Source: a virus (Duplodnaviria > Heunggongvirae > Uroviricota > Caudoviricetes). From it: 17,229 nt of DNA. How positions within the stretch are numbered: the first letter of the stretch is position 1; each line of letters opens with the position of its first letter. This document shows positions 1 to 17,229 of this stretch, piece after piece. Location: IMG/VR virus record IMGVR_UViG_2751185970_000003; one strand, 5' to 3'. The position numbers and the translations under genes were made by a program. Below the pieces are notes generated by a model that saw only the letters and a program-made list of their open reading frames with translations, did no database searches and had not been told where the DNA came from.

Positions 1-238
1 CATCAATGGTCTTTACAAAGCGGAGGTAATACACCGTAAGAGCTGGAAAAACCGTGCAGAAGTGGAACTGGCCACACTCACGTGGGTGGACTGGTATAAT
101 AATCGACGATTGCTGGAAAGGCTGGGCCACATCCCTCCGGCAGAAGCAGAAAAAGCTTATTATGCTTCCATCGGAAACGATGATCTGGCAGCCTGAGTTC
201 ACAGATAAAACACTCTCCAGGAAACCCGGGGCGGTTCA
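1..238 (+). mobile_element. IS629-like (IS3 family) insertion sequence, right-hand end; element continues upstream of the window
   Basis: The terminal 42 bp (197..238) read on the minus strand are TGAACCGCCCCGGGTTTCCTGGAGAGTGTTTTATCTGTGAAC, which matches the IS629/IS1203 inverted repeat as I remember it, with the TG...CA ends typical of IS3-family elements. The transposase reading frame stops at 194..196, immediately before this repeat. Confidence 0.75.
2..196 (+). CDS. IS3-family transposase OrfB, C-terminal fragment (5' end outside the window)
   Basis: Frame 2 translates to INGLYKAEVIHRKSWKNRAEVELATLTWVDWYNNRRLLERLGHIPPAEAEKAYYASIGNDDLAA followed by TGA at 194..196, a typical IS3-group integrase C-terminus. 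Confidence 0.8.
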   Translation: MNGLYKAEVIHRKSWKNRAEVELATLTWVDWYNNRRLLERLGHIPPAEAEKAYYASIGNDDLAA

Positions 239-773
239 CTCTATTGTTCTTGGTGATAATGACACCGGATTTAAACAGAATGGAGACGGTATTCTGGATG
301 TTTATGCTAATAGTCAGCGTGTATTCCGCTTTCAGAATGGAGTGGCTATTGCTTTTAAAAATATTCAGGCCGGGGATGGTAAAAAATTCACGCTATCCAG
401 CTCCAACAACTCCACAAAGAATGCAACGTTTAATTTATGGGGTGCTTCAACCCGTCCAGTAGTTGCAGAGTTAGGCAATGAGGCAGGATGGCATTTCTAT
501 AGCCAGCGAAATACAGATAACTCGGTAATATTTTCTGTTAACGGTCAGATACAGCCCAGCAACTGGGGGAATTTTGATTCACGCTATGTAAAAGATGTTC
601 GCCTGGGTACGCGTGTTGTTCAATTGATGGCGCGTGGTGGTCGTTATGAAAAAGCCGGACACGCAATTACCGGATTAAGAATCATTGGTGAAGTAGATGG
701 CGATGATGAAGCCATCTTCAGACCAATACAAAAATACATCAATGGCACATGGTATAACGTCGCACAGGTGTAA
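239..773 (+). pseudogene. Tail fibre C-terminal (variable, receptor-binding) fragment, P2 gpH type; 5'-truncated silent inversion cassette (Hv')
   Basis: The translation SIVLGDNDTGFKQNGDGILDVYANSQRVFRFQNGVAIAFKNIQAGDGKKF...[17 protein letters not shown] is nearly identical to the C-terminal ~175 aa of phage P2 gpH as I recall it. It has no start codon; its 5' end abuts the IS629 terminus at 238. The ORF-track entry 54..773 is a read-through across the IS end. Confidence 0.8.
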
Positions 774-776
774 ATT

Positions 777-1305
777 ATGCAGCATATTAAAAAATATTAA
801 GTCCGGAAATCCAAAAACAAAAGAACAATATCAGCTAACAAAGAATTTTGATGTTATCTGGTTATGGTCCGAAGACGGTAAAAACTGGTATGAGGAAGTA
901 AATAACTTTCAGGACGACACCATAAAGATTGTATACGACGAAAATAATATTATTGTTGCCATAACCAAAGATGCCCCAACGCTTAATCCCGAAGGCTTTA
1001 GTGTCGTTGAGATTCCAGATATAACAGCCAATCGTCGTGCCGATGATTCAGGGAAGTGGATGTTTAAGGACGGAACTGTGGTTAAGCGGATTTATACAGC
1101 AGACGAACAGCAACAACAGGCCGAATCACAAAAGGTCGCGTTGCTTTCTGAAGCTGAAAGCGTTATTCAGCCACTGGAACGCGCTGTCAGGCTGAATATG
1201 GCGATGGATGAGGAACGCACACGACTGGAGTCATGGGAACGCTACAGCGTTCTGGTCAGCCGTGTGGATACAGCAAATCCCGAATGGCCACAAAAGCCTG
1301 AGTAA
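777..1305 (+). pseudogene. Tail fibre assembly protein, P2 gpG type (G'), with a +1 frameshift after codon 3
   Basis: From about 787 onward the translation is [37 protein letters not shown]...[10 protein letters not shown], a P2 gpG-like tail fibre assembly protein. The ATG at 777 (atg cag cat) is in frame 0 but the body is in frame +1. An extra A at about 786 creates a stop (tat taa) after 7 codons in the ATG frame. Confidence 0.6.
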
Positions 1306-1310
1306 AAATT

Positions 1311-1330
1311 AAGGCCCAATATCGGGCCTT
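1311..1330. terminator. Bidirectional hairpin terminator between the convergent G' and G genes
   Basis: AAGGCCC-aatatc-GGGCCTT forms a 7-bp stem with a 6-nt loop. On the minus strand it is followed by a T-run (complement of 1305..1309), directly downstream of the minus-strand tfa stop at 1334. Confidence 0.55.
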
Positions 1331-1333
1331 CTC

Positions 1334-1867
1334 TCATTCTGGTTGTTCGGGAAACGTTACTGGCAGGCTGGAGGTGTCTGTAGATTCGACTTTCTGCGCA
1401 TAGAGCATCCACTCGGTTAATTTTTGTTTATTCTCGTCGGAAATGATGCCCAGTCGTAGCTGTGAGTCCCATAGCTGGGTTTTATCCCTGACAAGTTGCA
1501 ACAGGCTTTGCTTTTCATTTTCCGCTTGTTGCCTCTGCTCTTCCTCGGTATAAGTTCGCTTTATCACTACGCCATCTTTGAACAACCATTTCCCCGAAAT
1601 ATCAGCCCGGCGATTTGCTGTAATATCAGGTAATTCAACGACGCTTGCGCCTTCCGGATTAATTGCTGAAACATCCTTTTCAATACAAATAATAACGCCG
1701 TTATGGTAATAGACCATTTTCAAAGTGTCTGGCTGGAAATTCTTTTGTTCCTCATACCAGTTTTTTCCATCATCTGAATAAAGCCATTTGATGTTAAATT
1801 GCTTTGTTAGCTGGTATTGCTCTTTTGTTTTAGGGTTGCCAGCAGTAATGTTTTTTAAGTGCATCAT
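1334..1867 (-). CDS. G: Tail fibre assembly protein (expressed copy)
   Basis: 177 aa, [40 protein letters not shown]...; this is a tail fibre assembly/chaperone family protein. It starts 3 nt after the H stop and the region is AT-rich, as expected for a host-range module. Confidence 0.9.
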   Translation of the reverse strand: MMHLKNITAGNPKTKEQYQLTKQFNIKWLYSDDGKNWYEEQKNFQPDTLKMVYYHNGVIICIEKDVSAINPEGASVVELPDITANRRADISGKWLFKDGVVIKRTYTEEEQRQQAENEKQSLLQLVRDKTQLWDSQLRLGIISDENKQKLTEWMLYAQKVESTDTSSLPVTFPEQPE

Positions 1868-1869
1868 CG

Positions 1870-3855
1870 TTAAATACTCCCCGCGTTATACCACGTCCCA
1901 TTAATGCAATACTGAATTGGCCTTGCCTGTGTTGTATCAATTAATTCATCACGGTTTCCGTTAACTGAACCCGTAACGACATAACCTGACCTGTCAGACC
2001 AGCCGGGACCATTCCATGTCTGAACAGATGACAGACCGCCAAGGCGAATACCTGTAATAAACCTTGAGTTACATTCTGCCCGCGTATATGCACCAACATC
2101 TCCCGCTGAAGGTTTTCGTGTCGTGGTATAGAAATCTGACCAACCTAATTCAACCCCATAACCATCACGAGCCGACCTGTAGGAAATGCCACCATTTTTA
2201 TAATTCACACGGAATTGTACGGCAGGACAGCTACCAGCATTTATATTAAAGTGAAGAATTAATGCAGATGCACCACCAATCAGGGCGTTATATGCACCAC
2301 TATCCCAATTCCATCCAACGGATGTATCACCATTAACAGTATTACCTGTTTGTCGGAGTGCAAATGCATTGACATTTTTGGCACTAATTGAGATATCGCT
2401 AGAACCATCAAAACCAACTCCAGCAATTTTTCGTGCTGTTTTCAGCTTTGTTGCAGTAGCGGCATTGCCGGACAGTTCCCCAGAAAGGCCACCGCTGAAT
2501 GTTTGTCGATTGGTCCAGGTATTCGCTGTACTGAGTAACGGTATTTTCTCCCCGCTTGTGCCGAGTTCTCGTAAACCGAGGTATTCGATAACGGCAGCAA
2601 CGGTCGATTTCGCAAGAATATCCCGCCCGACTTTTGTCAGGGTTGCCAGGCTGGCGACATCATTCCCCGTAAAATACGGAAACCTGTCTGCCGCAGTAGC
2701 AAGCCCGGCCAGCGCCGTCAGGGTGGCATCTTTCGGTTGCTTACCCGCAAGCGCGTTAGTCATGGTGGTCGCAAAATTCGGGGCGTTTCCCAGCGCCGCC
2801 GCTAACTCGTTCAGCGTATTCAGTGCGTCAGGTGACGAATCTACAAGGGCGGCAATCGCAGCCATAACGAAAGCCGTGCTTGCGATTTGGGTATTATTCG
2901 TTCCCTGTCGCGCAGCTGGCGTTGTTGGCGTTCCGGTCAGCGCAGGACTGTTTAAGGGCGCTTTCTTGTTCGTTTCATCCATTACCGCCTTAACCGCTTT
3001 CGATGTCGCGGCCAGTGTTTCAGACGTGCTGTTGGTGGCACTACTGAGCTGGACTATCCCTTTTTGTGCCGTCGTGGCGTCCTGAGCGGTATATTTTGCG
3101 TTAGCAAGGTCATACGCGGCCTTTACTGCTTTCGGCGTTGCAGCCTGCGTTTCAGACGTGCTGTTGGTGGCGCTACTGAGCTGGACAAGGCCTTTTCGCG
3201 TCGTGCTGGCATCCTGCGCAGTATATTTACCGTTAGCAAGATCATACGCGGCCTTTACTGCTTTCGGTGTTGCAGCCTGCGTTTCAGACACGCTGTTAGT
3301 GGCGCTACTGAGTTGAACAAAGCCTTTTGCGGTCAGCGAGGCGTCCGGGTGACGTCGTGACTGTTCATGCTCTTTCAGTTTGTCATCCACGTAATCCACT
3401 GTGGCCATCACCATGGTGTTGTCCACGGTAAGCGCCACGGTGGCAGTGCTGGATACGGTCAGAATGGTGCGAAATGTTTGTGCACGACCGGACCCTTCGG
3501 CAACGGCTGGCTTGTAACTTTCGGCAGTATTTCCCACCGCGATTAAATCGCCGTGCTCATCAAATACACCAATTTCCCGGATCCAGAATCCGCCCGTTTC
3601 AGGAGGAATAACCAGCTCCGCAATAATGCGGTTCTGATGTGTTGCGTCCAGGATGACGCGATTAACAGTATGTCGCCACACCTCATGCACCAGACGGGTC
3701 TGCTTACTGTCTGGTGTGGGCAACGTGCCGCCACCGTCGCCCACGGCCATATGAGTCAGGCGGACAGGCTTACCATCTGGCGCGGCTACCTGAGCTAATT
3801 TTTTTGCACCCGTATCGGTGATAATGGTTTTAAATTTTCGTGTTGTGGTACTCAT
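1870..3855 (-). CDS. H: Tail fibre protein (P2 gpH homologue with a divergent C-terminal receptor-binding region)
   Basis: 661 aa. The N-terminal ~430 aa track P2 gpH (HEVWRH..., IAELVIPPE...GGFW, EHEQSRRHPDASLTAKGF, repeated QLSSATNSTSETLAATPKAVKA units, ...AVIEYLGL). The C-terminus after the crossover site is unrelated to the P2-type Hv' cassette at 239..773. Confidence 0.92.
   Translation of the reverse strand: MSTTTRKFKTIITDTGAKKLAQVAAPDGKPVRLTHMAVGDGGGTLPTPDSKQTRLVHEVWRHTVNRVILDATHQNRIIAELVIPPETGGFWIREIGVFDEHGDLIAVGNTAESYKPAVAEGSGRAQTFRTILTVSSTATVALTVDNTMVMATVDYVDDKLKEHEQSRRHPDASLTAKGFVQLSSATNSVSETQAATPKAVKAAYDLANGKYTAQDASTTRKGLVQLSSATNSTSETQAATPKAVKAAYDLANAKYTAQDATTAQKGIVQLSSATNSTSETLAATSKAVKAVMDETNKKAPLNSPALTGTPTTPAARQGTNNTQIASTAFVMAAIAALVDSSPDALNTLNELAAALGNAPNFATTMTNALAGKQPKDATLTALAGLATAADRFPYFTGNDVASLATLTKVGRDILAKSTVAAVIEYLGLRELGTSGEKIPLLSTANTWTNRQTFSGGLSGELSGNAATATKLKTARKIAGVGFDGSSDISISAKNVNAFALRQTGNTVNGDTSVGWNWDSGAYNALIGGASALILHFNINAGSCPAVQFRVNYKNGGISYRSARDGYGVELGWSDFYTTTRKPSAGDVGAYTRAECNSRFITGIRLGGLSSVQTWNGPGWSDRSGYVVTGSVNGNRDELIDTTQARPIQYCINGTWYNAGSI
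2566..2591. other. gix/hix/cix-like 26-bp crossover site for a Din-family serine DNA invertase, inside the tail fibre gene
   Basis: TTCTCGTAAACCGAGGTATTCGATAA matches about 21 of 26 positions of Mu gixL (TTCCTGTAAACCGAGGTTTTGGATAA, from memory). It sits at the constant/variable boundary of H, where the protein reads VIEYLGLRE. Confidence 0.6.
2988..3345. repeat. Tandem 132-bp (44-codon) repeats inside H, about 2.7 copies
   Basis: Units beginning at 3017, 3149 and 3281 are near-identical (gtttcagacgtgctgttggtgg...), with partial units at the flanks. They encode KGFVQLSSATNSxSETQAATPKAVKAAYDLANGKYTAQDAxTT repeated. Confidence 0.85.
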
Positions 3856-3857
3856 GC

Positions 3858-4388
3858 TTAATCGCCTGGATAAATGGTAATAACTTCACCGTCATAAGTT
3901 GCCGCCGCTGCGAAAATATCCCCCGGAATTTCCTGAATGATATTCAGCCCTGTCATGTGGCGGCTGACCGGGCGGGCATCAGCAATCAACCGCTCCATTT
4001 CCAGATACATTTCCTCCGTCACGCCACTGTCCAGCGTGCCGACTTCAACGGTAAATGTTCCCGGTTCTCCGCCGAACTCCCACCACTCAGACACGCGAAT
4101 GAGGTATCCCAGCGGCTCAATGGCCCGGCGCAGTGCGCTGATGGTCCCTTTGTGTCGGTGTATCAGCCATGCATCACGAATAACCTGTCGCTTTGTCTCT
4201 TCCGGCCAGTTGCGATCCCAGCGGTCAACGGAAAACGCCCAGGCGAGATAAGGCAGCAGATGCACCGGGCAGGTGTCCGGCGACCACAGCGTGTTGAGGT
4301 CTACCGGAATGTCTGTAATGCGTGTTCCGACGGCTTCGGCACAACGCATGAAATTGCTGGCTGATGGTGGTAACAACGAATTACTCAT
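3858..4388 (-). CDS. I: Baseplate assembly protein gpI
   Basis: 176 aa from the ATG at 4388 (MSNSLLPPSASNF...WAFSVDRWD...GEVITIYPGD), with a GAAGGTGG ribosome-binding site 5 nt upstream. The ORF-track start at 4421 is an upstream extension overlapping J. Confidence 0.88.
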   Translation of the reverse strand: MSNSLLPPSASNFMRCAEAVGTRITDIPVDLNTLWSPDTCPVHLLPYLAWAFSVDRWDRNWPEETKRQVIRDAWLIHRHKGTISALRRAIEPLGYLIRVSEWWEFGGEPGTFTVEVGTLDSGVTEEMYLEMERLIADARPVSRHMTGLNIIQEIPGDIFAAAATYDGEVITIYPGD

Positions 4389-5276
4389 TGCGTCCACCTT
4401 CGCTGATGGTGAATGACTCACAGCGCGCCGCCTGTATGTCGCTGATGGCCATATTCTGTGTGGGTTCGATTATCTCCACGCGTTGCACACCGTGCACATG
4501 CAGTGCGGCAGCAATGGCGGACAACGCCACGTCCTGACCGATAAGCCCCTGCTCAGCCAGCCACTTCCTGAACGACGATTCAGCCGCGGCCAGAATAGGT
4601 TCGGATTCCGGGCCGGGGTAAAAGTACAGTTTTGCATTCAGCCGCCATGTCACGATTCTGGCACTCTGTACGGTCAGGCGGTCGCCACCGGGCGGGTATC
4701 CTCTGCATTCAGAACGGCGCGAACGGTATTAAGCAACGCCTCCGTTGCTGTGCCGTCGCCCTCAGTGGACAGGATGGAAACCGTCACGTTGGCCGGAGAC
4801 GGGCTGATGGCCCGCGCATCGCGTACCAGACCGCTGGCGCTGCGTGCAAAATACTCGTATGCACCTGACGGGCCAGCAACACTCAGACCGTCATATGCCC
4901 GTTGCGCCCGTAGTCTCAGCGAGGTGTCACTTTCCATCACTGCATCGGTGGTATCCGTTGCCGGAGTGATAACCAGGCGCTTTGTGTTCATATTGCCCGC
5001 GAGGTTGTCCAGGTCTGTCCCGGCGCTGTGGCTTAGCATGCAGGCGCGTGCACCCTCATTGACCCGCTGGCGTAACAGCATTTCACGAAACGACATGGTT
5101 TGAGCGATAACGTTAAGGGGTTCCGATTCCAGCTCCAGCGCGGCGGAAACGGCTTCACGCTGTTCGGCGGGATAGGACGCAATCATCATGGCCTTTGTGT
5201 CAGCCAGAATTGCCTCAAAGTCAGGCTCCGCGATGATGGCGGGTTCCGGTAACTGTGAAAGGTCAACGGCAGGCAT
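4381..5276 (-). pseudogene. J: Baseplate assembly protein gpJ, split by a 1-bp deletion (frameshift near 4683)
   Basis: Two ORFs (4674..5276 and 4381..4653) together cover a P2 gpJ-like protein (MPAVDLSQLPEPAIIAE...TRPVA then, in another frame, GDRLTVQSARIVTWRLNAKLYFYPGPESEP...). The minus strand reads gtggcgaccgcctga where gtggcgGaccgcctg would restore the frame. Confidence 0.7.
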
Positions 5277-5279
5277 GAT

Positions 5280-5630
5280 TTACTCCCTCAGCGTGATGGT
5301 TAATTCAACATTCTGCATGGTCTGCATGACAGTGCCCGACAGCGTCACCCCGGCGCGGCCTCCTGCCTTCCAGACAACGTCGATAGCGTCCAGGGCAATG
5401 CGGGGTTCCCATCGTGTCAGCGCAATCACGGCAGCACTCATGCATTGCAGACGCGTGGTGTTATTCATGGGTTCGTCAATCAAATCAGGCACAAGGCTGC
5501 CATATTCCCGTCGCATAACCCGGCTTGCCAGCGGGGTGGTCAGGATGTCCCTGACTGACTGTTTCAGGTGCTCCATATCGTTCAGGTTTCCCGTTCCGTC
5601 CGGGTTCATTCCTGTGTAGCGGGTTGTCAC
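5280..5630 (-). CDS. W: Baseplate wedge protein gpW
   Basis: 116 aa, MTTRYTGMNPDG...SRVMRREYGSL...; the size and sequence pattern fit P2 gpW. It overlaps the V stop by 4 nt (ATGA). Confidence 0.88.
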   Translation of the reverse strand: MTTRYTGMNPDGTGNLNDMEHLKQSVRDILTTPLASRVMRREYGSLVPDLIDEPMNNTTRLQCMSAAVIALTRWEPRIALDAIDVVWKAGGRAGVTLSGTVMQTMQNVELTITLRE

Positions 5631-6208
5631 TGCGGGCCTCCTGTCGAATCGCTGCCACCTTTAACGCCACCGTGTTTATGCGTATGCACTGTGATGCCGT
5701 TTGAGGTGAAATTGCCGCCGCTGTGCGTGATATTGCCGCTCATCTTTCCCCCTTTTGTGACGTCAAGCGTCGCCGTTCTCAGAAGGTCTGTGCATTCCAC
5801 GACGGGCGTATCCAGTGTCACGCTGACGGATGCCTGCAGGGTGGCTGTTTTCATGCCGCTGGCGCTCAGTGCGCCTGCGTCCGCGTCGTAGCGGAACACC
5901 GCGCCATCCGGCGCGCTGACCACGATTTCTTTCAGGCTTTTGCCGGGGGCCGGAATGGCATCACTCCACAGGCTGCCAATTATCATGGCGGTTTCCGGGT
6001 TGCCGCCAATGCAGGCAATTACCACCTGTTCGCCTGGTGATGGCGGCAGCCACACATTGAAGGCTCCCGCGCGAGAGGTGTTCCAGCGCAGCCAACCTGT
6101 TTCCAGTTCGCCGCTGCGAACGCGCACGCGCCAGGACTTCTCATCAACTTCAGAGATGATCCCGGTGCGGATGATATTGCTCAGTAGCCGCATGAGTTCT
6201 GCGCTCAC
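5627..6208 (-). CDS. V: Baseplate spike protein gpV
   Basis: 193 aa, with the NIIRTGII, GEQVVI and C-terminal SNGITVHTHKHGG motifs characteristic of the P2 gpV spike. Confidence 0.9.
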   Translation of the reverse strand: MSAELMRLLSNIIRTGIISEVDEKSWRVRVRSGELETGWLRWNTSRAGAFNVWLPPSPGEQVVIACIGGNPETAMIIGSLWSDAIPAPGKSLKEIVVSAPDGAVFRYDADAGALSASGMKTATLQASVSVTLDTPVVECTDLLRTATLDVTKGGKMSGNITHSGGNFTSNGITVHTHKHGGVKGGSDSTGGPQ

Positions 6209-6840
6209 CGTACAGCCTCCGCAATCCGGCCCAGCACCGTGTTATAAATCAGACGCTCATCTGCCTGGCTGATACCCAGCAGCTCACGTACCGGGTAATC
6301 GGTGAAAATGCCCGGCGCAACCTGATCGCGCTCACCGAACTGATGAACGCGTGCAATACGTGCGGCCACGCCGCTGTAACCCACCGTCACACCGGAAGCA
6401 TCTGCACGGGCTTTCAGGTAGCGGGCGGTGCGCAGTTTTACGAACATGGGGACGCGCTTTGTGCTGTCCTGGTTGATGCGCCGGGTGCGTATTTCCAGAA
6501 AGCGGTCGATGTCATCCCGGTAAAACGTGCGGATGCTGTTTTTATCCTCATCCCACCCGGTGATGGTTCGCCCGTATTTCCCCGTGTCGTGATGCCAGTT
6601 TTTCAGCGTGCGTGCTTCGTTATTCCAGATAAAGCGAATGCGCTCCTGTATCCGGGTTACGTGGCGTCTGCGTGGTGTCCATGCGGTCCCGTCCGGCGCT
6701 TTCTGTGGCCGGATACGTGCCTGCTGGGCGCGGCGTAAATCCTGTGCCAGCTTTCTGGCGATGTTATTGATGGCCTGCTGATTCAGGCTGTCGCGGATGG
6801 CCTCAAAGGTTTCATCCACGCGAGTGAATGCCTTATCCAT
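6205..6840 (-). CDS. S: Tail completion / virion morphogenesis protein gpS
   Basis: 211 aa from the ATG at 6840, which has a GGGGTGA ribosome-binding site; the ORF track starts at a GTG at 6849. The PDGTAWTPRRR, FVKLRTARYLK and ARIARVHQFG motifs fit the P2 gpS family, and the gene lies between R and V. Confidence 0.8.
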   Translation of the reverse strand: MDKAFTRVDETFEAIRDSLNQQAINNIARKLAQDLRRAQQARIRPQKAPDGTAWTPRRRHVTRIQERIRFIWNNEARTLKNWHHDTGKYGRTITGWDEDKNSIRTFYRDDIDRFLEIRTRRINQDSTKRVPMFVKLRTARYLKARADASGVTVGYSGVAARIARVHQFGERDQVAPGIFTDYPVRELLGISQADERLIYNTVLGRIAEAVR

Positions 6841-7300
6841 CGCTTTCACCCCACGTCACATCCTGGAATACATGCGACCAGTCGCCTTCGGAAGATGGCA
6901 GGCGGGGTTTTGGCTCCAGCAGGTGTTCTGCCTGCGGTGTGCCCTGACTGCTGCGCGTGATGCGAACGCGTTCCCGCAGGGGGAGCGTAAACAGGAGATC
7001 GGCGCTGTCATCGTCATTGATAACGGCGGAAAATTTGATGTCCTGATTACGCTCAGGGTTGAGCAACAACTGTGGCTGATTTTCGGATAACCACGCCAGC
7101 AGCGGCAGCGTGAGGTCGTCCAGCTCCCCGGCGTAATCCATGACAAACATCACCATCTGATAGCGGTAAACAAACGATGGGGTTTCTCCGGTCGTTTCAA
7201 TGTTGCCGCTCTCCACGAAAATGGTGAATTTTTCCGGGTTAGCCTGACACCATCGGCATGAACGGGTCATGGCTTCACGCAGGGAATCAGTTTTCAGCAT
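6833..7300 (-). CDS. R: Tail completion protein gpR
   Basis: 155 aa, MLKTDSLREAMTRS...LLAWLSENQP...; same length as P2 gpR with clear N-terminal similarity. Confidence 0.88.
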   Translation of the reverse strand: MLKTDSLREAMTRSCRWCQANPEKFTIFVESGNIETTGETPSFVYRYQMVMFVMDYAGELDDLTLPLLAWLSENQPQLLLNPERNQDIKFSAVINDDDSADLLFTLPLRERVRITRSSQGTPQAEHLLEPKPRLPSSEGDWSHVFQDVTWGESDG

Positions 7301-7577
7301 GGTTGTTATCCTCGTTGTTCAGTCGTTGCAGCCTGCGCTGTTCCAGTAATTCAATGGCCCGTTTATCCGCGTTACAGGTTTCCAGTGCATCCAGAAGGCG
7401 GTCGCCCCATATACCGAGATTTCCCCATGTGGGAGTGTCAGGGAAGGGGGGAGGCGTTACCGGTATGGTCAGCGTCTGCGGTATAAGCCGGACTGACGGC
7501 GCTGGCAGTGGCGCGTTCTGCGTGCCTGCGCAGCCTGTCAGTAAAACGAGCGTCAGGCAAAGCGTGGGCGCATTCAT
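7287..7577 (-). CDS. lysC: Outer-membrane spanin lipoprotein (Rz1-like, LysC)
   Basis: 96 aa from the ATG at 7577: MNAPTLCLTLVLLTGCAG has a lipobox, followed by a proline-rich stretch (PLPAPSVRLIPQTLTIPVTPPPFPDTP). It begins inside the 3' part of lysB in another frame and extends beyond it. The ORF-track start at 7607 is a GTG. Confidence 0.8.
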   Translation of the reverse strand: MNAPTLCLTLVLLTGCAGTQNAPLPAPSVRLIPQTLTIPVTPPPFPDTPTWGNLGIWGDRLLDALETCNADKRAIELLEQRRLQRLNNEDNNHAEN

Positions 7578-7845
7578 CTTTTGCAATATCGTTGCGTAGC
7601 TGTTCACGTCTTACCTCTCCGTCCTGATTGCGTTGCTGATTTTCCACGCGGAGTTGCGCCAGCACCTGCTGCATATCCTGTACCCCGGCGCTGATGATAT
7701 TCAGGGTGTCGGCGGTACTTTTCAGGGTGCTGGCCTGCGCTTCGTTTCTGGCGTTCTCCCGGCCCAGCGACCACGACAGACGCATGGATGTTCCCCATCC
7801 GGCAGTCAGAAGGAAAGCGACGCCAAGCGTGGGCCAGAGCTTCAT
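7438..7845 (-). CDS. lysB: Inner-membrane spanin (Rz-like, LysB)
   Basis: 135 aa from the ATG at 7845 (MKLWPTLGVAFLLTAGW...), with an N-terminal transmembrane segment followed by a charged coiled-coil. It overlaps the endolysin stop by 4 nt (ATGA). Confidence 0.8.
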   Translation of the reverse strand: MKLWPTLGVAFLLTAGWGTSMRLSWSLGRENARNEAQASTLKSTADTLNIISAGVQDMQQVLAQLRVENQQRNQDGEVRREQLRNDIAKDECAHALPDARFTDRLRRHAERATASAVSPAYTADADHTGNASPLP

Positions 7846-8234
7846 GCCGGATAGGCTCCGTGTGGTAACTGAAAATGCGGTCCGTCTTTCAGGGTCTTCC
7901 AGTCGCCGCCCCATTCCACCGGAATATTCAGTTCCCGGCTGGCCTGTCTGAATGCTGCTGCGATTTTTTCGTACAGCGGCCATTCCCATGACATCTGGCT
8001 GCCGATATAAGCCACAACATCCACGGCATGCCCCGTAAGGTGGCGGCTGTTCATGGTCTGGCTCTTACCCGTGGCCACCAGTTGCTTCTGGCGGTAACGG
8101 CTGCGCAACCCTTCGGTGATACCAAAATCCACTTCCGAGATTTCCAGTGCCCGTCGGGTCACTTTCACCAGATCAGGATTTACACCCTGCAAATTCTTTT
8201 CGCTCCGGCTGCTGAATTTAAATGTGTTGCTCAT
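7842..8234 (-). CDS. Endolysin, peptidase M15 / L-alanyl-D-glutamate peptidase type
   Basis: 130 aa with the zinc-peptidase signature SRHLTGHAVDV and a downstream DGPHFQ, placed between holin and spanins. This is not the lysozyme-type P2 gpK. Confidence 0.75.
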   Translation of the reverse strand: MSNTFKFSSRSEKNLQGVNPDLVKVTRRALEISEVDFGITEGLRSRYRQKQLVATGKSQTMNSRHLTGHAVDVVAYIGSQMSWEWPLYEKIAAAFRQASRELNIPVEWGGDWKTLKDGPHFQLPHGAYPA

Positions 8235-8554
8235 TCGTCCTTCTCCTTCACCCTGCGATTAAAGGCCGCAATAACCTTGTCGCGTGCTTTCTCTGCACCC
8301 ATAAAACCGATTGATGCGCCGATAAACGTCACGGCATCTTCAGGAAACCCGAAGAAGCGCAACGACCCGGCCACGGCCATGGCAAGAACGCCGCACGCCA
8401 GCGATCCCGTTACGGTCTGAACCAGTGTTCGTCCGTCATAAAGGCTCATCAGCGCGGAAATGCTGACCGCCGCGCCTACTGCATACACCGTTGGCAGGTG
8501 GTCAAAGAGCCACGCAATAACCTGCTCTGTGATCCCTGTTTGAATGGTGCTCAC
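8231..8554 (-). CDS. Holin (three predicted transmembrane segments, charged C-terminus)
   Basis: About 107 aa from the GTG at 8554, with a GGGGGAG ribosome-binding site 6 nt upstream. Hydrophobic segments TVYAVGAAVSISALMSL, VTGSLACGVLAMAVAGSL and AVTFIGASIGFMGA are followed by a KR-rich tail. It sits immediately upstream of the endolysin with an ATGA overlap. Confidence 0.7.
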   Translation of the reverse strand: MSTIQTGITEQVIAWLFDHLPTVYAVGAAVSISALMSLYDGRTLVQTVTGSLACGVLAMAVAGSLRFFGFPEDAVTFIGASIGFMGAEKARDKVIAAFNRRVKEKDE

Positions 8555-8556
8555 TG

Positions 8557-8757
8557 CTACTCCCCCCACAACTGAATCATTTCTCGTTTCTTCTTCTCCG
8601 GCTCCGGCATCTCCACTTCCTGCCCGGCGTCCAGAAATACCTGCTGACAGAGTCCGGGGTTGGCATCCAGCACCTTTTCGGTGACGCCCTGCGTCGTGCC
8701 GTAGTACCGGAAACAGAGCGAATCCACGGTGTCGCCTTCCAGTGCCTTCACTTTCAT
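8557..8757 (-). CDS. X: Tail protein gpX
   Basis: 66 aa from the ATG at 8757 (MKVKALEGDTVDSLCFRYYGTTQGVTEKVLDANPGL...LWGE), resembling P2 gpX (MKTFALQGDTLDAICVRYYG...). It overlaps the L stop by 1 nt (TGATG). Confidence 0.88.
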   Translation of the reverse strand: MKVKALEGDTVDSLCFRYYGTTQGVTEKVLDANPGLCQQVFLDAGQEVEMPEPEKKKREMIQLWGE

Positions 8758-9251
8758 CAGCACAACTCCGCAAAGATTCGCGGGCGGCACAGAATGTCAG
8801 AGATGGCCCAGCTCACATCACGCCACAAATCCGATGTCTGTATATCCAGAGCGTCTGCCCGGCGGTCGCCCTTGTCCGTAGTGTCTGCATCACGATAACG
8901 CTCCAGAATCAGGGCGCGCGTGGCGGTATAAACAGCATTGCGCCAGTGCCAGAGATTGACGCTTTCTCCGTTAATTACGGGTGCCGGAACATCGGCCAGC
9001 GTCTGATGGCCAGCTGCCTGCTGTTCCTGCTGCCATGCTTCCAGCTCGCGGGTAACGTGTGCCACAGCCCCGGTGGCAGTATGCAGCAGGCGGGAGGTGG
9101 TCACGCGCCCCGGCAGTCGTACCGCCAGACGCAGCTCGCGCAGCACAATATCCGGCCAGAATGCACCCGCTGAAATGCGGGTATCGCCATCATCGGTATC
9201 GGTGATGTCGTCCTCTGCGGGTCCGGGTTCAGTTCTGGCAACTATAGTCAT
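8757..9251 (-). CDS. L: Head completion / stabilisation protein gpL
   Basis: 164 aa from the ATG at 9251, with an AGGAG ribosome-binding site 9 nt upstream. Its position between M and X and its size fit P2 gpL. Confidence 0.8.
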   Translation of the reverse strand: MTIVARTEPGPAEDDITDTDDGDTRISAGAFWPDIVLRELRLAVRLPGRVTTSRLLHTATGAVAHVTRELEAWQQEQQAAGHQTLADVPAPVINGESVNLWHWRNAVYTATRALILERYRDADTTDKGDRRADALDIQTSDLWRDVSWAISDILCRPRIFAELC

Positions 9252-9354
9252 GGGGTTCACTCCTGAAAAAAAATCGGGCGGTGGGTGCGCGGTGTAAACG
9301 GTCACGGAGTCAAACTGGAACACCGCGCACGCCGCCCGCTGACGGGGTCAGTCG

Positions 9355-10155
9355 TTAACCGCGCTTCGCCTTCTGCGTCGCGGTGGTTTTTCGTGTTGCA
9401 GGCTTCCGCGTTGTCTTTTTACTTTTGCTGCTTTCGTCCTGCGCCTGCTGTGCGCTGGCGTCTTCTGGTTCGGCTGCGGAATCGGCTTTTTTCAGGGCGC
9501 GGGAAAGGGTTGCAATCTCGCGTTTCACACCTGCGTTCGGGTTCAGGTGCATTGCTTCGCGCAGCAGCTTCAGTGACAGGGCCATGCTGTCCGCATCACT
9601 CAGGCCACGGCGGGCAAAGGCGCACGCTTTGCATAATTTGGCGCGCACTTCGTCCGGCATGTCCTGGTCGGTGACAATCTCCCGGAGGGTGTCCAGTGGT
9701 TCGATAAAGGCGGACAAATCCGCGTCGGCATCCGTCCCGGCCTGCGTCAGTACCGGATTACAGATTTCTTCGGTCAGTACCGTGGCAGCAGTACGGCCAA
9801 AGTTATCCGGCATGATGAGGTTGTGACGGACTACATACGCGCCGATACGCAGCGCAAGCGGAAGATCGCCACAGTCAATCGCCCACACCATCAGCGTGGC
9901 AATCACTTCATCCTGCTGCCCGCCGTCAGCCTCCAGCGTTCCCTCAATCCAGCCGGAAAAATCCGGCAACAACTCTTTTTTGATGGCGGCTTTCGCGCTT
10001 CTGGCCTGTACGCCCTTAAGCCGGGCCTGTGCCAGACGCAGACGATACAGCACCTCTTCATGCGCGGTACGCGCGGCGTGGTCCACGCCTTCATTCGCCC
10101 GGCCTGCGCGCTGTGCCATCACGTTCTGCCAGTGTTGTTGTGCAGGAGTAATCAT
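9355..10155 (-). CDS. M: Terminase endonuclease (small) subunit gpM
   Basis: 266 aa, with a GGAGAG ribosome-binding site upstream of the ATG at 10155. Its position after the capsid gene and its basic C-terminal tail (KKTTRKPATRKTTATQKAKRG) fit P2 gpM. Confidence 0.85.
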   Translation of the reverse strand: MITPAQQHWQNVMAQRAGRANEGVDHAARTAHEEVLYRLRLAQARLKGVQARSAKAAIKKELLPDFSGWIEGTLEADGGQQDEVIATLMVWAIDCGDLPLALRIGAYVVRHNLIMPDNFGRTAATVLTEEICNPVLTQAGTDADADLSAFIEPLDTLREIVTDQDMPDEVRAKLCKACAFARRGLSDADSMALSLKLLREAMHLNPNAGVKREIATLSRALKKADSAAEPEDASAQQAQDESSKSKKTTRKPATRKTTATQKAKRG

Positions 10156-10172
10156 TTTTGCTCTCCGTTACA

Positions 10173-10191
10173 GGCGGGCATGATGCCCGCC
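10173..10191 (-). other. Perfect 19-bp palindrome / stem-loop between capsid gene N and terminase gene M
   Basis: GGCGGGCAT-g-ATGCCCGCC has 9-bp arms. It lies between the N stop (10201) and the M ribosome-binding site and is a candidate attenuator, RNA processing or stability element. Confidence 0.5.
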
Positions 10192-10200
10192 GTGAGTTGA

Positions 10201-11252
10201 TTAGCTGTCGGCGAACTTCAGGCCAGTAACCATCGCGCACTTGCCATAGTCTTCAACGACATAAGCGTCATTGATGGACTGGTAGGTGGCGATGCGGTTG
10301 TATTCCGGCTCGTCTTTCATCAGGCGACGCATTGAACCTTTCTGCCAGTAAATCGACAGGTTGTTGAACGAGGTGATCAGCATCGTTGCATCCGGGAAGA
10401 ACGGCGCAAGGAACACGCCCAGCCCGCCAATGGTGCGCGATGACAGGATGAGCTGCCCGGCGAGTAATTCCGCATTGGGATTCTGGCCGCTGATGCTGTT
10501 CAGCACGGGCAGACGCAGCGAGTTAAACAGGTTGCGCCCCATAATCACCACGAGGTCGTCAGCTTCCTTGTGCCATTCATCCAGCAGGGATGAACGCGCG
10601 TCCTGTACCAGTGCATCAGCGTTCGCATACTTACCCGCGTGCGCCACGGTGTTGTCCATGTTGCGGGAGGTCAGCGTCACGTCATTCATAACGCGTTCGC
10701 TGGCGTCGGTTCTGATGTGCTCCAGCCAGCCCACGTTAACGTCCTGAAGCAGCTTGTTGGTGCTGAAGTTGGACTCATCCGCGTGAGACGTGCCGTTGAA
10801 ACCGATCATGATGCGGTCAAGCGCCACCTGTCGGGCAATCTGTGCGCTGATGCGGGACTGAAAATCAGGGTGTGCCGACCAGGCATCAAGCTGCGGATAC
10901 GAAATAAACGTGTCGTAGTTCACCTGTTCACACTGATATTTGCGGTTTTTCAGATCAACCACGTTATTCGGGTTACGGCGTTTTGTGCCGTCATAACTGG
11001 TATTCGTGCGCGCAATCGGTCCTGTGGTATCCAGGAGGATTTTTTCGCCTTTCTGGTCGGTCACGCCGATCACGTTATTTTTTTCGTAAATTCGGTACTT
11101 TCCTTTGAGGCGTTTTCAAAACGCTGCTGCACCGCGGGTTCCACGGTAAATCGCGACACCAGTGCAGATACCGGGATATTATTAAGCGACACCTGCTGCG
11201 CCATATAGCAACCCAGCTTGTTGCGGGTAATATCTGACATCACCAGATTCAT
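10201..11252 (-). pseudogene. N: Major capsid protein gpN, interrupted by a 1-bp frameshift in a homopolymer (T7 at 11078..11084)
   Basis: The ATG at 11252 has an AAGGAG ribosome-binding site 9 nt upstream. The first 60 codons (...FTVEPAVQQRFENASKESTEFTKK) end at a stop at 11070; the rest (...NVIGVTDQKGEKILLDTTG...NLSIYWQKG...YVVEDYGKCAMV) is in the -1 frame. One extra T/A in the run would give a continuous ~350-aa P2 gpN-like protein. Confidence 0.75.
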
Positions 11253-11275
11253 AAAAAATTTGCTCCTTTGTCTAA

Positions 11276-12112
11276 TCAGAAGTCGGCCAGCTGGTCGGAG
11301 GCTGCGCCCGTTGCGGTGAAGCGGTTCTGCGGATCGCCGTCCTGCGTGCGCAGTTTTTCCTTCAGTGCTGCCAGCTCTGTGGTCAGTGACGTAATTTTCT
11401 GGCGGTCCTGCTGATGGCGGGTTTCCAGCACATTAAAACGGTCGATAATGTCGGCCTGTGACGTTGCGACGCCTTCCACCGCTTCCTGAATACGGGAAAA
11501 ACTGGCGTCATCCGCTTTGCGGCCACGGCCAATAATCCCCATTACGCGGTTAAACCACTGGGTGCCTTCTTCCTGGCGTTGTTCTGCCATTTCGATGATT
11601 TCAGACTCGATGGCTTCGGAGATAAGCGGCGCTTCACCCTGGATACTGTTAAACGTCATCACCGCCTGACGTTGCTGTGCCGTGAATTTCAGGCGCTCAG
11701 TGCCCAGGCTTGCCGGGGTGTCGGTCATCGCCAGCCCGACCAGATAGGCGCGCCCGTTAACGGAGAACTGCGGGTGCAGTTCGATACTGGAATAGATTTT
11801 CTTGCCGTCCGCAACAAGCTGCTTCATGCGCTCGGTCGGTTCGATTTCTGCATACAGCGCAGTACGTCCGGCCAGCGGACCTTCCGTAATCTCTTCCGTA
11901 CTCAGTGCGGTGACATCGCCCATTGCGGAAAATTCGCTTGACGGGCATGGCGAGAGATAGTGCTCAACGTTCACGCGGGCAGCGTAAACATCCGGGTTGA
12001 AGTTCTCGGCGGCTTCACGCAGATGCACCGGACTGATTTCACGGCCATCAACAGTTGATCCGGAGACAGCCACGCGAAACTTTTTGCGGGATGTCTTTTT
12101 TTCATTAGCCAT
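11276..12112 (-). CDS. O: Capsid scaffolding protein gpO
   Basis: 278 aa from the ATG at 12112 (MANEKKTSRKKFRVAVSGSTVDGREISPVHL...YLVGLAMTDTPASLGTE...), resembling P2 gpO (FRIGVEGDTCDGRVIS..., CYLVGLAVTDDPASLGTE). The ORF-track start at 12145 is an upstream extension. Confidence 0.88.
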   Translation of the reverse strand: MANEKKTSRKKFRVAVSGSTVDGREISPVHLREAAENFNPDVYAARVNVEHYLSPCPSSEFSAMGDVTALSTEEITEGPLAGRTALYAEIEPTERMKQLVADGKKIYSSIELHPQFSVNGRAYLVGLAMTDTPASLGTERLKFTAQQRQAVMTFNSIQGEAPLISEAIESEIIEMAEQRQEEGTQWFNRVMGIIGRGRKADDASFSRIQEAVEGVATSQADIIDRFNVLETRHQQDRQKITSLTTELAALKEKLRTQDGDPQNRFTATGAASDQLADF

Positions 12113-12266
12113 AGTTTTTGCCCCTCTGACTGGTTCTTCAGTCATGATGGCAAAGCGTAACAGGCTGATACAAAGGGCTTTTGTTGTAAGAAAACGGCCA
12201 GAACAGAGGGTTAAGGAGAACAGTTTCGCGCGCGGGTAATCTTCCTGTAATTACTCAGGGGGAGCA
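12113..12266. promoter_or_regulatory. Divergent O / P intergenic region; expected site of the late promoters for the O-operon (minus) and P-Q operon (plus)
   Basis: A 154-bp non-coding gap between divergently transcribed O and P, with ribosome-binding sites at both ends. This is the same arrangement as in P2. I could not find a clean TGT-N12-ACA activator box. Confidence 0.4.
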
Positions 12267-14018
12267 ATGATTCAGGACGCTTTTGTGCGCCAGCGTGCGC
12301 GGCAACTTTACTGGCAGGGTTATCCGCCCGCAGAAATATCACGTCTGATGGGAATAAACCCGAACACGATTTATGCGTGGAAAAAACGTGACCAGTGGGA
12401 TGAAACGCCACCCGGGCAGCGTGTCACGCAGTCCATCGATGCGCGCCTCATCCAGCTTACTGAAAAACAGAATAAAACAGGCGGTGACTTTAAGGAAATA
12501 GACCTGCTGACCCGGCAGCTTAAAAAGCTGCATGATGGCCAGCCGGATGTGATGGCCGCAGGAAAGAAAGGCCGGGCGAAAAAACTCAAAAATCATTTCA
12601 CGCCGGAACAGATTGCCGCACTGCGGGAAAAAATCATCAGCAGGCTGGAGTGGCATCAGCGGGGCTGGTTTGACTCCCTGACCCTTTGCAGGGAAGCCGG
12701 GATACGTAACAGGATGATCCTGAAATCCCGACAGATTGGGGCGACCTGGTATTTTGCACAGGAAGCACTGCTGATGGCGCTGCGTGACGATGTGGCGCAA
12801 CCTTACCAGCGTAACCAGATTTTTTTGTCTGCGTCGCGTCGTCAGGCGTTCCAGTTTAAAAGCATTATTCAGAAGGCCGCGGCTGAAGTTGATGTGGAGC
12901 TGAAAGGGGGCGATAAAATCATCCTCTCCAACGGCGCAGAGCTGCATTTTCTCGGCACTTCTGCTGCGTCGGCACAGTCCTATACGGGCAATTTTTATTT
13001 TGATGAATTTTTCTGGGTCAGTCGCTTTGCTGAACTGCGCAAGGTGGCTGGCGCTATGGCAACCCTCAGCGGACTGCGGCGCACCTACTTCTCCACGCCA
13101 TCCACCGAAACGCACGAGGCATACGCCTACTGGAACGGCGACCGCTGGAACGAGAAAAAGGCCTCGCATAAACGCCAGCGTTTTTCTGTGGACTGGAAAA
13201 CGCTGCATAACGGGCTTATCTGCCCTGACCGGACGTGGCGGCAAATTGTCACGCTGGAAGATGTGGTTAATCACGGCTGGAAACACACCGATATCGACGA
13301 AATTCGTGATGAAAACACCGAAGACGAGTTCCTCAATCTCTATATGTGTGAGTTTGTCCGCGAAGGGGAATCGGCATTTAACCTGAATATCCTGATTGGC
13401 TGCGGCGTTGACGGATACGACGACTGGAAAGACTGGAAACCTTTTGCTCCCCGCCCGATGGGGAATCGTCCGGTATGGATTGGGTATGACGCAAACGGCA
13501 GCAGTGGCAACGGCGACAGCGGCGCTGTGTCCGTGGTGGTTCCTCCGTCTGTTCCTGGTGGCCGTTTTCGAACGGTGGAGACGCGACGCGTTCAGGGGCT
13601 GGAGTTTGAAGAACAGGCCAGAGTCATTGAAGAGTTCACGTGTCGCTACAACGTGGAACACATCGGCATTGATGTGACGGGCGGGAACGGGGAGGCTGTT
13701 TATCAGATAGTGAAACGGTTTTTCCCTGCCGCTATTCCGTACACCTTCACGCTGTCATCAAAACGGTCGCTGGTACTGAAAATGCTGCAAATAATGCGTG
13801 CCGGGCGGTGGGAATACGATCGCGCCGAACGCGAGCTGGTCGCGGCCTTTAACGCCGTGCGTAAGGTGAAAACACCGGGCGGCTTTATCACTTACGAAAC
13901 GGACCGAGCGAGGGGGATCAGCCACGGCGACCTTGCGTGGGCAACCATGCTTGCTGTCATTAACGAACCGATTGGCGGCGAAGGAGAAAACGAGCGTTTC
14001 ACGGTTATGGAGTTCTGA
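12267..14018 (+). CDS. P: Terminase large subunit (ATPase) gpP
   Basis: 583 aa, with a GGGGGAG ribosome-binding site. The N-terminal MIQDAFVRQRARQLYWQGY...ISRLMGINPNTIYAWKKRDQW region and the overall size match P2 gpP. It overlaps the Q start by 1 nt (TGATG). Confidence 0.93.
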   Translation: MIQDAFVRQRARQLYWQGYPPAEISRLMGINPNTIYAWKKRDQWDETPPGQRVTQSIDARLIQLTEKQNKTGGDFKEIDLLTRQLKKLHDGQPDVMAAGKKGRAKKLKNHFTPEQIAALREKIISRLEWHQRGWFDSLTLCREAGIRNRMILKSRQIGATWYFAQEALLMALRDDVAQPYQRNQIFLSASRRQAFQFKSIIQKAAAEVDVELKGGDKIILSNGAELHFLGTSAASAQSYTGNFYFDEFFWVSRFAELRKVAGAMATLSGLRRTYFSTPSTETHEAYAYWNGDRWNEKKASHKRQRFSVDWKTLHNGLICPDRTWRQIVTLEDVVNHGWKHTDIDEIRDENTEDEFLNLYMCEFVREGESAFNLNILIGCGVDGYDDWKDWKPFAPRPMGNRPVWIGYDANGSSGNGDSGAVSVVVPPSVPGGRFRTVETRRVQGLEFEEQARVIEEFTCRYNVEHIGIDVTGGNGEAVYQIVKRFFPAAIPYTFTLSSKRSLVLKMLQIMRAGRWEYDRAERELVAAFNAVRKVKTPGGFITYETDRARGISHGDLAWATMLAVINEPIGGEGENERFTVMEF

Positions 14019-15064: not shown

Positions 15065-15091
15065 CGCGCTTCGCTTGTCTGCTGCTTCGCC

Positions 15092-15114
15092 GGGGCATAA
15101 AAAATTTATGCCCC
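15092..15114 (+). terminator. Hairpin immediately downstream of Q
   Basis: GGGGCATAAA-aaa-TTTATGCCCC has a 10-bp stem and begins 28 nt after the Q stop. There is no strong U-tract, so it may act as an RNA stability element or weak terminator. Confidence 0.45.
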
Positions 15115-15283
15115 GACTCTCCAGCTCCTGTATCAGTCAGATAATTTCACGACGCCTTCCAGTTTATCGCCACCATCGACGGTCAGACTCTTACGCAATC
15201 CCACCGCGTTGACTGCATGTTCTCGCCGCCTCAGTGCGATTTTGACGGCCTTACCTTTCACCCCATCAAATCAGAATCCCTCA

Positions 15284-15314
15284 CGTATTTTTCACGCTCA
15301 GCGTGAGAAATACG
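15284..15314. other. 31-bp near-perfect palindrome in the cos-proximal non-coding region
   Basis: CGTATTTTTCACGCT-c-AGCGTGAGAAATACG has 15-bp arms with a single mismatch; it is a candidate protein-binding or packaging element. Confidence 0.6.
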
Positions 15315-17130: not shown

Positions 17131-17229
17131 TGAAGTGGTCAACAAAAACTGGCCACCGAGTTAGAGTTTTTCCAGTATCGATTTTCCGATTCGTTTGGGG
17201 GGAACCCACCGTTATATTCGTGCGGTCTT
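17131..17229. mobile_element. Terminus of an IS3-family-like insertion sequence (IS911-like end), continuing beyond the window
   Basis: The sequence begins TGAAGTGGTCAACAAAAACTGGCCACC, which resembles the IS911-type terminal repeat (TGAAGTGG...TGGCCACC) as I recall it, exactly where ParM homology stops. No ORF is included in the 99 bp available. Confidence 0.5.

Follow-up and report, generated by a model that had tools for sequence, protein, structure and literature searches.

Organization of the tail-fibre region

The window, which is the whole stretch of 17,229 nucleotides analysed here, corresponds to the complete contig MDDH01000574.1 and is bounded on both sides by the ends of insertion sequences (IS). 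The late operon has the gene order V-W-J-I-H-G. Its tail-fibre gene H and tail-fibre assembly chaperone gene G are located on the minus strand, and they are followed on the plus strand by a second chaperone gene (G′) and part of a second fibre tip (Hv′). The features of this region are:

1–238, plus strand: right (3′) end of an IS3-family element, IS629/IS1203-like; tail of transposase orfB at 2–196 (rve_2/rve_3)
239–773, plus strand: Hv′, 3′ part of the silent alternative tip, P2 gpH-type; 177 codons and a stop
777–1305 (ORF body 778–1305), plus strand: G′, silent tail-fibre assembly chaperone, Mu U/P2 G-type; Caudo_TAP
1311–1330, minus strand: G+C-rich hairpin of 8 pairs (5 G-C) followed by a T run, between the convergent chaperone genes
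1334–1867, minus strand: G, expressed tail-fibre assembly chaperone, Mu U′-type; Caudo_TAP
1870–3855, minus strand: H, tail fibre of 661 aa; Pfam Phage_tail_fib and three Phage_fiber_2 stretches
1870–2578, minus strand: Hv, expressed variable C-terminal part of H, from crossover codon L426 to residue 661; Mu S′/P7 S-type tip
2566–2591: 26-bp Din-family crossover site, bixL/gix-like; inner half TTCTCGTAAACC, core GA at 2578–2579, outer (Hc) half GGTATTCGATAA
2579–3855, minus strand: Hc, constant N-terminal part of H, P2 gpH-like; Phage_tail_fib, Phage_fiber_2

The window encodes two fibre C-termini as alternatives, oppositely oriented and each accompanied by a chaperone gene. The initial annotation had read this layout, with H-G on the minus strand and G′-Hv′ on the plus strand, as the architecture of the Mu G segment and the P1 C segment, and we agree with that reading. 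Judged by its match to the consensus, the hairpin between the chaperone genes is a probable terminator of the expressed H-G operon. Hc contains 2.6 copies of a 132-bp tandem repeat (2987–3328).

Protein identities confirm that the silent cassette is of the P2 H/G-type, as first proposed, and that the expressed one is of another type, the Mu S′/U′-type. The portion of Hv′ retained in the window is 95.5% identical to P2 gpH 493–669, and the full Hv′, as read from the relative L005, is 96% identical to P2 gpH 384–669. G′, from residue 4, is 91% identical to P2 gpG and 96.5% to Mu U. Over its last 165 residues, Hv reaches an identity of only ∼38% with P2, compared with 88% for each of Mu S′, P7 S and the silent Hv′ of phage P88. 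The nearest counterparts of G are Mu U′ (96.6% identity) and the silent G′ of P88 (98%). The constant part, Hc, is 73% identical to P2 gpH 4–381 and 99% to P88 H 1–428. The two tips are likely to differ in receptor specificity.

Crossover sites, insertion sequence and invertase

The 26-bp sequence at 2566–2591 had been singled out for its resemblance to gix-like sites and for its position where H diverges from P2 gpH. It differs from bixL at two positions and is the sole match to bixL in the window at up to three mismatches; none of 200 shuffled controls gave a match. Four of its 26 positions differ from Mu gixL/gixR, which were located at the annotated boundaries of the G segment. On the H strand the site codes for V-I-E-Y-L-G-L-R-E, so that the agreement with P2 gpH stops at ...AVIEYLGL (residues 421–428 of H, equivalent to P2 H 374–381). 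The matches to bixL and gix identify it as a genuine Din-family site at the junction between the constant and variable parts of H. No second, inverted site was found within the window, even when up to eight substitutions were allowed.

Hv′ is interrupted at 238/239 by the IS, whose terminal inverted repeat ends in ...CCCGGGGCGGTTCA at 238. These 238 bp carry an IS3-family terminal repeat and are 95–97% identical to IS3/IS1203-family copies in E. coli, which places the element, named IS629 in the initial annotation, in the IS3 family. The IS end ...GGGGCGGTTCA is common to three unrelated insertions, and homology to an intact Hv′ begins at 239, which corresponds to position 13617 of L005. Some BLAST matches suggested an IS reaching to 253–266; however, the flanks are unrelated at two such loci that were inspected, and the IS is thus taken to end at 238, with the longer matches representing chance extension. 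About 108 codons from the 5′ part of Hv′, as well as the partner site, would sit beyond the IS, the insertion point being ∼327 bp from the partner site as measured in L005 and L001. As the contig stops within the IS, neither the partner site nor the invertase of this particular genome is visible. A junction probe (1–480) detected no complete E. coli genome with the same insertion, the exact junction 37-mer is absent from species-representative genomes, and a 203-aa ORF (162–773) has no exact-protein match. A 197-aa ORF (180–773) is matched exactly by its own contig and by a sister contig, L013, in which the segment is flipped.

An inverted partner site and a serine invertase had been predicted to lie past the IS. 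Both are present at this position in IS-free relatives. The closest of these, L005, is 99.985% identical to window 239–13854 (one mismatch, one gap) and continues beyond the insertion point with the 5′ part of Hv′, a site (TTCCTGTAAACCGAGGTTTTAAATAA) and a 199-aa protein with Resolvase and HTH_7 domains. The partner site of L005 and of the intact E. coli prophage L001 is TTCCTGTAAACC GA GGTTTTAAATAA, in inverted orientation; the inverted repeat of L001 comprises 5645–5674 and 8327–8356. The 199-aa invertase (PF00239 and PF02796) is 85% identical to Mu Gin, 72% to P7 Cin, and 99% over 183 aa to the ‘DNA invertase’ of P88. The names in its sequence cluster are limited to ‘recombinase family protein’, with no ‘PinB’ among them. 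The invertase adjoins the segment in nine relatives (L001, L002, L005–L007, L009, L010, L012 and L013) and in P88.

All IS-free relatives examined have the partner site and a Gin-like invertase gene adjacent to the segment. In three of them (L003, L004 and L008, 99.8% identical to the window) the gene is frameshifted by a 1-nt deletion, and the enzyme has therefore been lost in part of the lineage. The genome under study probably retains the partner site and an intact invertase, although an IS-mediated deletion could conceivably have followed the insertion. The first 235 nt of the invertase gene (L005, L013 and P88) show few differences from Mu gin. The 5′ part of gin holds a Fis-dependent recombinational enhancer, and the switch described here may depend on Fis and an enhancer too.

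Segment orientation and the proposed switch

The sister contig L013 has the same IS/Hv′ junction as the window, but the opposite orientation of the segment. It matches positions 1–2582 of the window without a difference, and beyond them follows L005 at 100% identity into the invertase gene. The crossover site of L013, TTCTCGTAAACCGAGGTTTTAAATAA, is an exact half-site recombinant, in which the inner half and core are kept and the outer half is exchanged; all four differences from the window site fall in the outer half-site. Hv is identical in the two contigs and in L013 adjoins the invertase, not Hc. Since L013 is flipped with the same IS junction, the IS lies inside the segment and the flip occurred after the insertion. 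The segment of P88 is likewise inverted relative to the window. A flipped junction constructed in silico has matches of 100% identity in complete E. coli genomes; at least 80% of the flipped probe is covered by 359 such genomes, and at least 80% of the unflipped probe by 330. UTI89 (unflipped) and NU14 (flipped), for example, have their junctions at nearly the same coordinate (∼0.92 Mb). Both orientations therefore exist, as had been anticipated, with exchange at the core as in other Din-family segments. Inversions have been measured experimentally in P2-like prophages of EPEC (PMC4272514).

We are confident that this is an invertible tail-fibre segment carried by a P88-like (Xuanwuvirus, P2-family) prophage, apparently a PinB/bix ‘B segment’ system and close to the Gin/G segment of Mu. 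A Gin-like serine invertase, whose gene lies immediately outside the segment, would pair two inverted 26-bp sites, one in H (2566–2591) and the other between Hv′ and the invertase gene. Strand exchange at the central GA would invert ∼2.7 kb and so give Hc one of two continuations, Hv and G or Hv′ and G′; transcription of the late operon would extend only into the cassette connected to Hc. In the orientation of the window, the Mu S′/U′-type tip and chaperone would be expressed, with the P2-type spare cut by the IS. A flip now would produce Hc and ∼108 Hv′ codons and then run into the IS; the two-specificity switch would therefore be, in effect, an on/off fibre switch. The initial description of the switch as disrupted applies to the coding capacity of the spare cassette, but not to the recombination device, which evidently still worked after the IS had inserted. 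The flipped product in a sister isolate that shares the IS junction shows that neither the sites nor the invertase had been destroyed.

The switch could nevertheless be locked in this particular genome, with its orientation frozen after the invertase was inactivated or the partner site lost, by a frameshift or an IS-mediated deletion. The 1-nt invertase deletion in L003, L004 and L008, the accumulation of lesions in the prophage and the end of the contig within the IS are all compatible with this possibility. It is, however, unlikely given the intact 199-aa invertase in L005 and in the IS-sharing L013, and the flip of L013 after the insertion. Tail-fibre genes are notoriously mosaic, and the H gene of P2 has a fossil site, TTCCTGTAAACCGAGATATTCGATAA, without an invertase; the locus might accordingly be a static mosaic or duplication left by exchange among P2-, Mu- and P1-like fibres, with the 26-mer as a fossil and no inversion. 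Such an explanation is very improbable in view of the partner site and adjacent invertase in the IS-free relatives, and of the two orientations with exact half-site exchange. Finally, homologous recombination between inverted IS copies, or misassembly, as the source of the difference between the window and L013 might be suggested by the many IS copies in the host and the IS ends bounding the contig, but we reject it as having almost no likelihood because the sole breakpoint lies inside the 26-bp site, with the IS/Hv′ junction unchanged and a shared core (∼12 bp) too short to mislead an assembler.

Prophage decay and comparison with known systems

Three genes of the prophage, namely G′, J and the capsid gene, are frameshifted. 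An extra base near 786 in G′ places the native ATG (777) out of frame, with a stop at codon 8. This frameshift, defined by comparison with L001, L002, P88 and P2, is common to nine of the ten close relatives compared; in the tenth, the divergent L011, the sequence used to trace it was not found. With three genes damaged in this way, the switch may have lost any function for the phage. The lineage appears to record a stepwise decay of the switch, through the IS in Hv′, the G′ frameshift and the invertase frameshift in sister strains, and these steps may serve as a typing marker for the E. coli/Shigella lineages concerned. It seems improbable that the host keeps the switch for its own benefit, either as a phase-variable fibre or fragment that blocks receptors against other phages or in a tailocin-like function. 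Receptor blocking against other phages has been reported for PinQ/StfE2 of e14 (PMC12529663). In this prophage, which can no longer form capsids, the switch would alternate reversibly between an intact Mu S′-type fibre (on) and a truncated Hc-Hv′ stub (off).

An invertible tail-fibre switch of this kind is already known, and the finding is real but ordinary. The earlier characterization of the element as a P2 relative with a Mu-like switch holds, but such a combination is not new, given PinB/bix, P88 and the P2-like prophages of EPEC. The import of the finding is largely one of annotation: in place of separate ‘tail fiber protein’ and ‘hypothetical’ genes, the locus should be labelled a PinB/Gin-type invertible tail-fibre segment whose spare cassette is interrupted by an IS, carried by a P88-like prophage. 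Isolates that share one IS insertion and differ in orientation also offer a natural example of a segment that its Din invertase can flip despite an additional IS inside it.

One of the known systems closest to the invertible segment proposed here is the PinB/bix B segment of Shigella boydii/sonnei (GenBank D00660; Tominaga et al. 1991, as tabulated in PMC3241671, table 3: bixL/bixR), a likeness known from the sites. The outer (Hc-side) half and GA core of the window site are those of bixL (24/26 overall), the partner site of L005 matches bixR at 25/26, and the sites of P88 match bixL and bixR at 26/26. The E. coli/Shigella host background is also alike. The differences are two changes in the inner half of the window site (TTCTCG... 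instead of TTCCTG...), which make it cix-like, and the IS in the spare cassette.

P88 (Xuanwuvirus P88, NC_026014) is an inducible P2-family phage with 97.9% nucleotide identity to window 2571–15515 (12.9 kb) and 96.7% to a further region, 16183–17130, collinear and in the same gene order. Its order H-G-G′-Hv′-invertase, followed by the convergent U-T-E-FII-FI block, is that of this prophage type. P88 differs in the opposite orientation of its segment, the absence of the IS and an intact capsid gene, and the middle of its long cassette is unlike the P2-type Hv′ of the window. The P88 record annotates a DNA invertase. The P88 paper mentions neither an invertase nor inversion.

Mu gix matches the window site at 22/26 positions and the partner site at 24/26. 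The 5′ DNA of Mu gin is almost the same as that of the invertase gene in the relatives, and for both genes transcription leads away from the segment. Unlike in Mu, the constant fibre part and the whole virion module are here of P2-type, and the second cassette is P2 H-type and only 46% identical to Mu S. The C segment of P1/P7 has the same architecture, and its cix site (TTCTCTTAAACC) resembles the inner half-site of the window; however, cin is transcribed towards the segment, and the cix core is AA rather than GA. P2 represents a fixed version, in which the fossil site has one change beside the core, there is no second cassette or invertase, and fun(Z) follows G. In E. coli K-12, the P segment of e14, with its Pin invertase, is a fibre segment that continues to be flipped within a defective prophage (PMC4272514; PMC12529663), although e14 is a lambdoid remnant with other sites (pix, core AA) and has no IS within its segment.

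Gene layout and the crossover site in H

The layout of the fibre region was established by ORF listing, translation and Pfam scans of the window. It bears out the initial annotation, which had placed H and G on the minus strand and G′ and Hv′ on the plus strand.

Features of the window
1..238, 3′ end of an IS3-family element; the transposase tail (2..196) matches rve_2/rve_3
239..773, plus, Hv′, silent fibre tip cut by the element at 238/239; 177-codon ORF fragment
778..1305, plus, body of G′, the silent chaperone; second Caudo_TAP gene (Pfam)
1311..1330, hairpin and T run between the convergent chaperone genes G and G′
1334..1867, minus, G, chaperone of the expressed fibre; Caudo_TAP (Pfam)
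1870..3855, minus, H, expressed tail fibre, 661 aa; Phage_tail_fib at the N-terminus and three Phage_fiber_2 repeats (Pfam)
Remainder, P2-type late genes I, J, W, V, S, R, lysis, X, L, M, N, O; then divergent P, Q

Protein identities of the constant part (Hc) and the two cassettes
Hc (H 1-428): 73% to P2 gpH; 99% to P88 H
Expressed Hv tip (last 165 aa): 88% to Mu S′ (G(-) fibre), the P7 S tip and the P88 silent cassette
Expressed G: 96.6% to Mu U′
Silent Hv′ (full version, from the IS-free relative L005): 96% to P2 gpH 384-669
Silent G′: 96.5% to Mu U; 91% to P2 gpG

The silent cassette is thus P2-type while the expressed one, related to Mu S′/U′, has another specificity, as had been proposed. 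The 26-bp sequence at 2566..2591 reads TTCTCGTAAACC GA GGTATTCGATAA. It differs at two positions from bixL (TTCCTGTAAACC GA GGTATTCGATAA), a crossover site of the Shigella invertase PinB, with the outer half and core identical, and at four from gixL/gixR of Mu (TTCCTGTAAACC GA GGTTTTGGATAA; both from the Din-family site table, PMC3241671). Inspection of Mu at the annotated ends of its G segment confirmed the gix sequences directly, and inspection of P7 the cix sequences. Nothing else in the window matches, and 200 dinucleotide shuffles produced no match; the gix-like sequence noted at the outset is a real Din-family site.

On the H strand, the site is read as VIEYLGLRE, with the crossover core within the L426 codon. 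Similarity to P2 gpH ends here, at AVIEYLGL (H 421-428, P2 H 374-381), which is the point of divergence originally described. The 47-residue offset between the two proteins arises because Hc has one repeat copy more than P2 gpH. The tandem repeat in Hc (2987..3328) comprises 2.6 copies of a 132-bp unit, equal to 44 aa, which corresponds to the Phage_fiber_2 repeat (...QLSSATNSxSETxAATPKAVKAAYDLANxKYTAQDA...).

Partner site, invertase and orientation in relatives

The IS stops at 238 with the terminal repeat ...CCCGGGGCGGTTCA, an end also found in three unrelated insertions from this IS family. Since the window is the whole of contig MDDH01000574.1 (GCA_001712585.1), its own continuation beyond the IS cannot be read. 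Many contigs encode exactly the same H protein, and L005 is 99.985% identical to window 239..13854. Past the insertion point, L005 carries in order the missing 5′ part of Hv′, an inverted partner site (TTCCTGTAAACCGAGGTTTTAAATAA, differing from bixR at a single base), a 199-aa Resolvase and HTH_7 protein, and gpU. The same partner site and invertase arrangement is found in complete E. coli genomes and in phage P88, whose record annotates the corresponding gene as 'DNA invertase'. The enzyme shares 85% of its residues with Mu Gin, 72% with P7 Cin and 99% with its P88 counterpart, and in DNA sequence its gene is almost the same as gin over the 5′ part. The Fis-dependent enhancer of gin sits in the 5′ part of the gene. 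Measured from the partner site, the IS insertion point lies 327 bp inside the segment. A related prophage of E. coli 99-3311 carries an independent insertion of the same family (8065..9376 of L002) inside the expressed H rather than Hv′; IS3-family elements have therefore struck this fibre locus at least twice.

Both orientations of the segment occur. P88 has the reverse orientation, and its homology to the window breaks off at 2571. An in silico probe for the flipped Hc-Hv′ junction has matches of 100% identity in complete E. coli genomes; coverage of at least 80% was seen in 359 genomes for this probe and in 330 for the unflipped probe. UTI89 has the unflipped and NU14 the flipped junction at almost one coordinate (about 0.92 Mb).

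The segment has also rearranged with the IS inside it. The IS/Hv′ fusion ORF (180..773) is present on four contigs, three of which are represented by L013 (GCA_001730465.1). L013 matches window 1..2582 exactly, through the IS end, Hv′ fragment, G′, G and Hv, and then runs into the invertase and tail genes, not Hc, where it is 100% identical to L005. It also carries 144 bases of the IS beyond those in the window. Its site, TTCTCGTAAACCGAGGTTTTAAATAA, is an exact composite, with inner half and core from the window site and outer half from the partner; all four differences from the window fall in the outer half-site. By its sequence, L013 is the product expected of Din-type inversion of a segment carrying the IS. 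Recombination between IS copies, or misassembly, would not give an exact half-site recombinant. The site, the cassettes, the inverted partner and invertase in relatives, and the two orientations together support the original interpretation of a host-range switch. The description of the switch as 'disrupted' holds for the spare cassette, which was lost to the IS, but not for the recombination device, which still flipped after the insertion.

In the proposed mechanism, the invertase would pair the two inverted sites, cut the GA core and rotate, inverting about 2.7 kb, or about 4 kb if the IS3-family element within is full-length. The late V operon would express the variable end joined to Hc together with the chaperone that follows it, leaving the other cassette without a promoter; in the window, the Mu S′/U′-type end would be on. 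This expression logic, the Fis dependence and the receptor specificities are extrapolated from Mu, P1 and P2 biology. A flip would fuse Hc to about 108 Hv′ codons followed by the IS, with G′ split off, and no functional P2-type fibre would be possible. Past the IS, the genome itself is expected to contain about 300 bp of the Hv′ 5′ part, then TTATTTAAAACCTCGGTTTACAGGAA, then the 600-bp invertase gene. The switch is probably locked in the window's orientation in part of the lineage, judging from three sister contigs with an identical H protein (L003, L004, L008) that share a 1-nt invertase deletion at about codon 53 (equivalent to L005 14181); that it is locked in this genome too seems unlikely. 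Retention of the flipping switch by the host for its own benefit is speculative; PinQ/StfE2 is a cited precedent for host use (PMC12529663).

Decay of the prophage

Of ten close relatives examined, nine carry one extra base in G′ that shifts the native start out of frame. The insertion, near 786 (window 777..800), follows codon 3 (CAT-A-TTAAAAAA, compared with CATTTAAAAAA in the intact E. coli prophage L001, L002 and P88), and the native ATG now reads MQHIKKY-stop. Gene callers instead give a 187-aa ORF from 742 that overlaps Hv′. The extra base occurs in relatives with and without the IS and was not found in the divergent L011.

Compared with P88, the major capsid gene N lacks one base at nucleotide 176 (window about 11077, minus strand), which splits it into 10201..11073 and 11070..11252, with ORFs of 60 and 290 aa. 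The same 60- and 290-aa calls in L003-L012 suggest that close relatives share the deletion, so the prophage lineage is probably unable to make capsids. In baseplate gene J (4381..5276, minus), one base present in L005 is missing at 4683, within a G/C-rich stretch, which leaves gpJ as two ORFs of 90 and 200 aa; the window contig is alone in this among those compared, and the missing base may reflect either a genuine frameshift or a fault in the assembly.

The last ~99 bases (17131..17229) have no match to prophage homologues and open with a terminal-repeat-like TGAAGTGG... (longer reading TGAAGTGGTCAACAAAAACTGGCCACC). They look like the end of another IS3-family element, in which case both ends of the contig would lie in IS sequence, and the prophage would be interrupted in its ParM/partition-like early region as well. 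The lesions in G′, the capsid gene, J and the invertase of sister contigs, together with the second IS-like contig end, therefore indicate a degrading prophage. The host appears IS-rich and probably belongs to Shigella or a closely related E. coli lineage.

Relation to known inversion systems

The P88-like prophages examined have the tail block FI-FII-E-T-U on the strand opposite H-G, converging on the invertase gene (L001 1..4966; P88 27600..33175; L005 14652..20235), while gpD beyond it keeps the H-G orientation. Compared with the P2 order (H G FI FII E T U D), the block is inverted as a unit, directly beside the invertase; a Din-type inversion using secondary sites is one possible origin.

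The feature is real and of an already known kind. The PinB/bix invertible B segment of Shigella has been described (Tominaga et al. 1991, as summarized in PMC3241671), and phase-variable inversions were measured directly in P2-like prophages of EPEC (PMC4272514). P88-like phages (Xuanwuvirus) carry such a system too, with an annotated invertase. P2, in contrast, has no second cassette and no invertase, but its gene H retains a fossil crossover site, TTCCTGTAAACCGAGATATTCGATAA (4115..4140), with one change from bixL, adjoining the core. This falls exactly at the Hc/Hv′ fusion point, and P2 looks like a frozen 'flipped' state of such a switch. Against these systems, the sole mildly unusual aspect here is an IS carried within a segment still able to flip.
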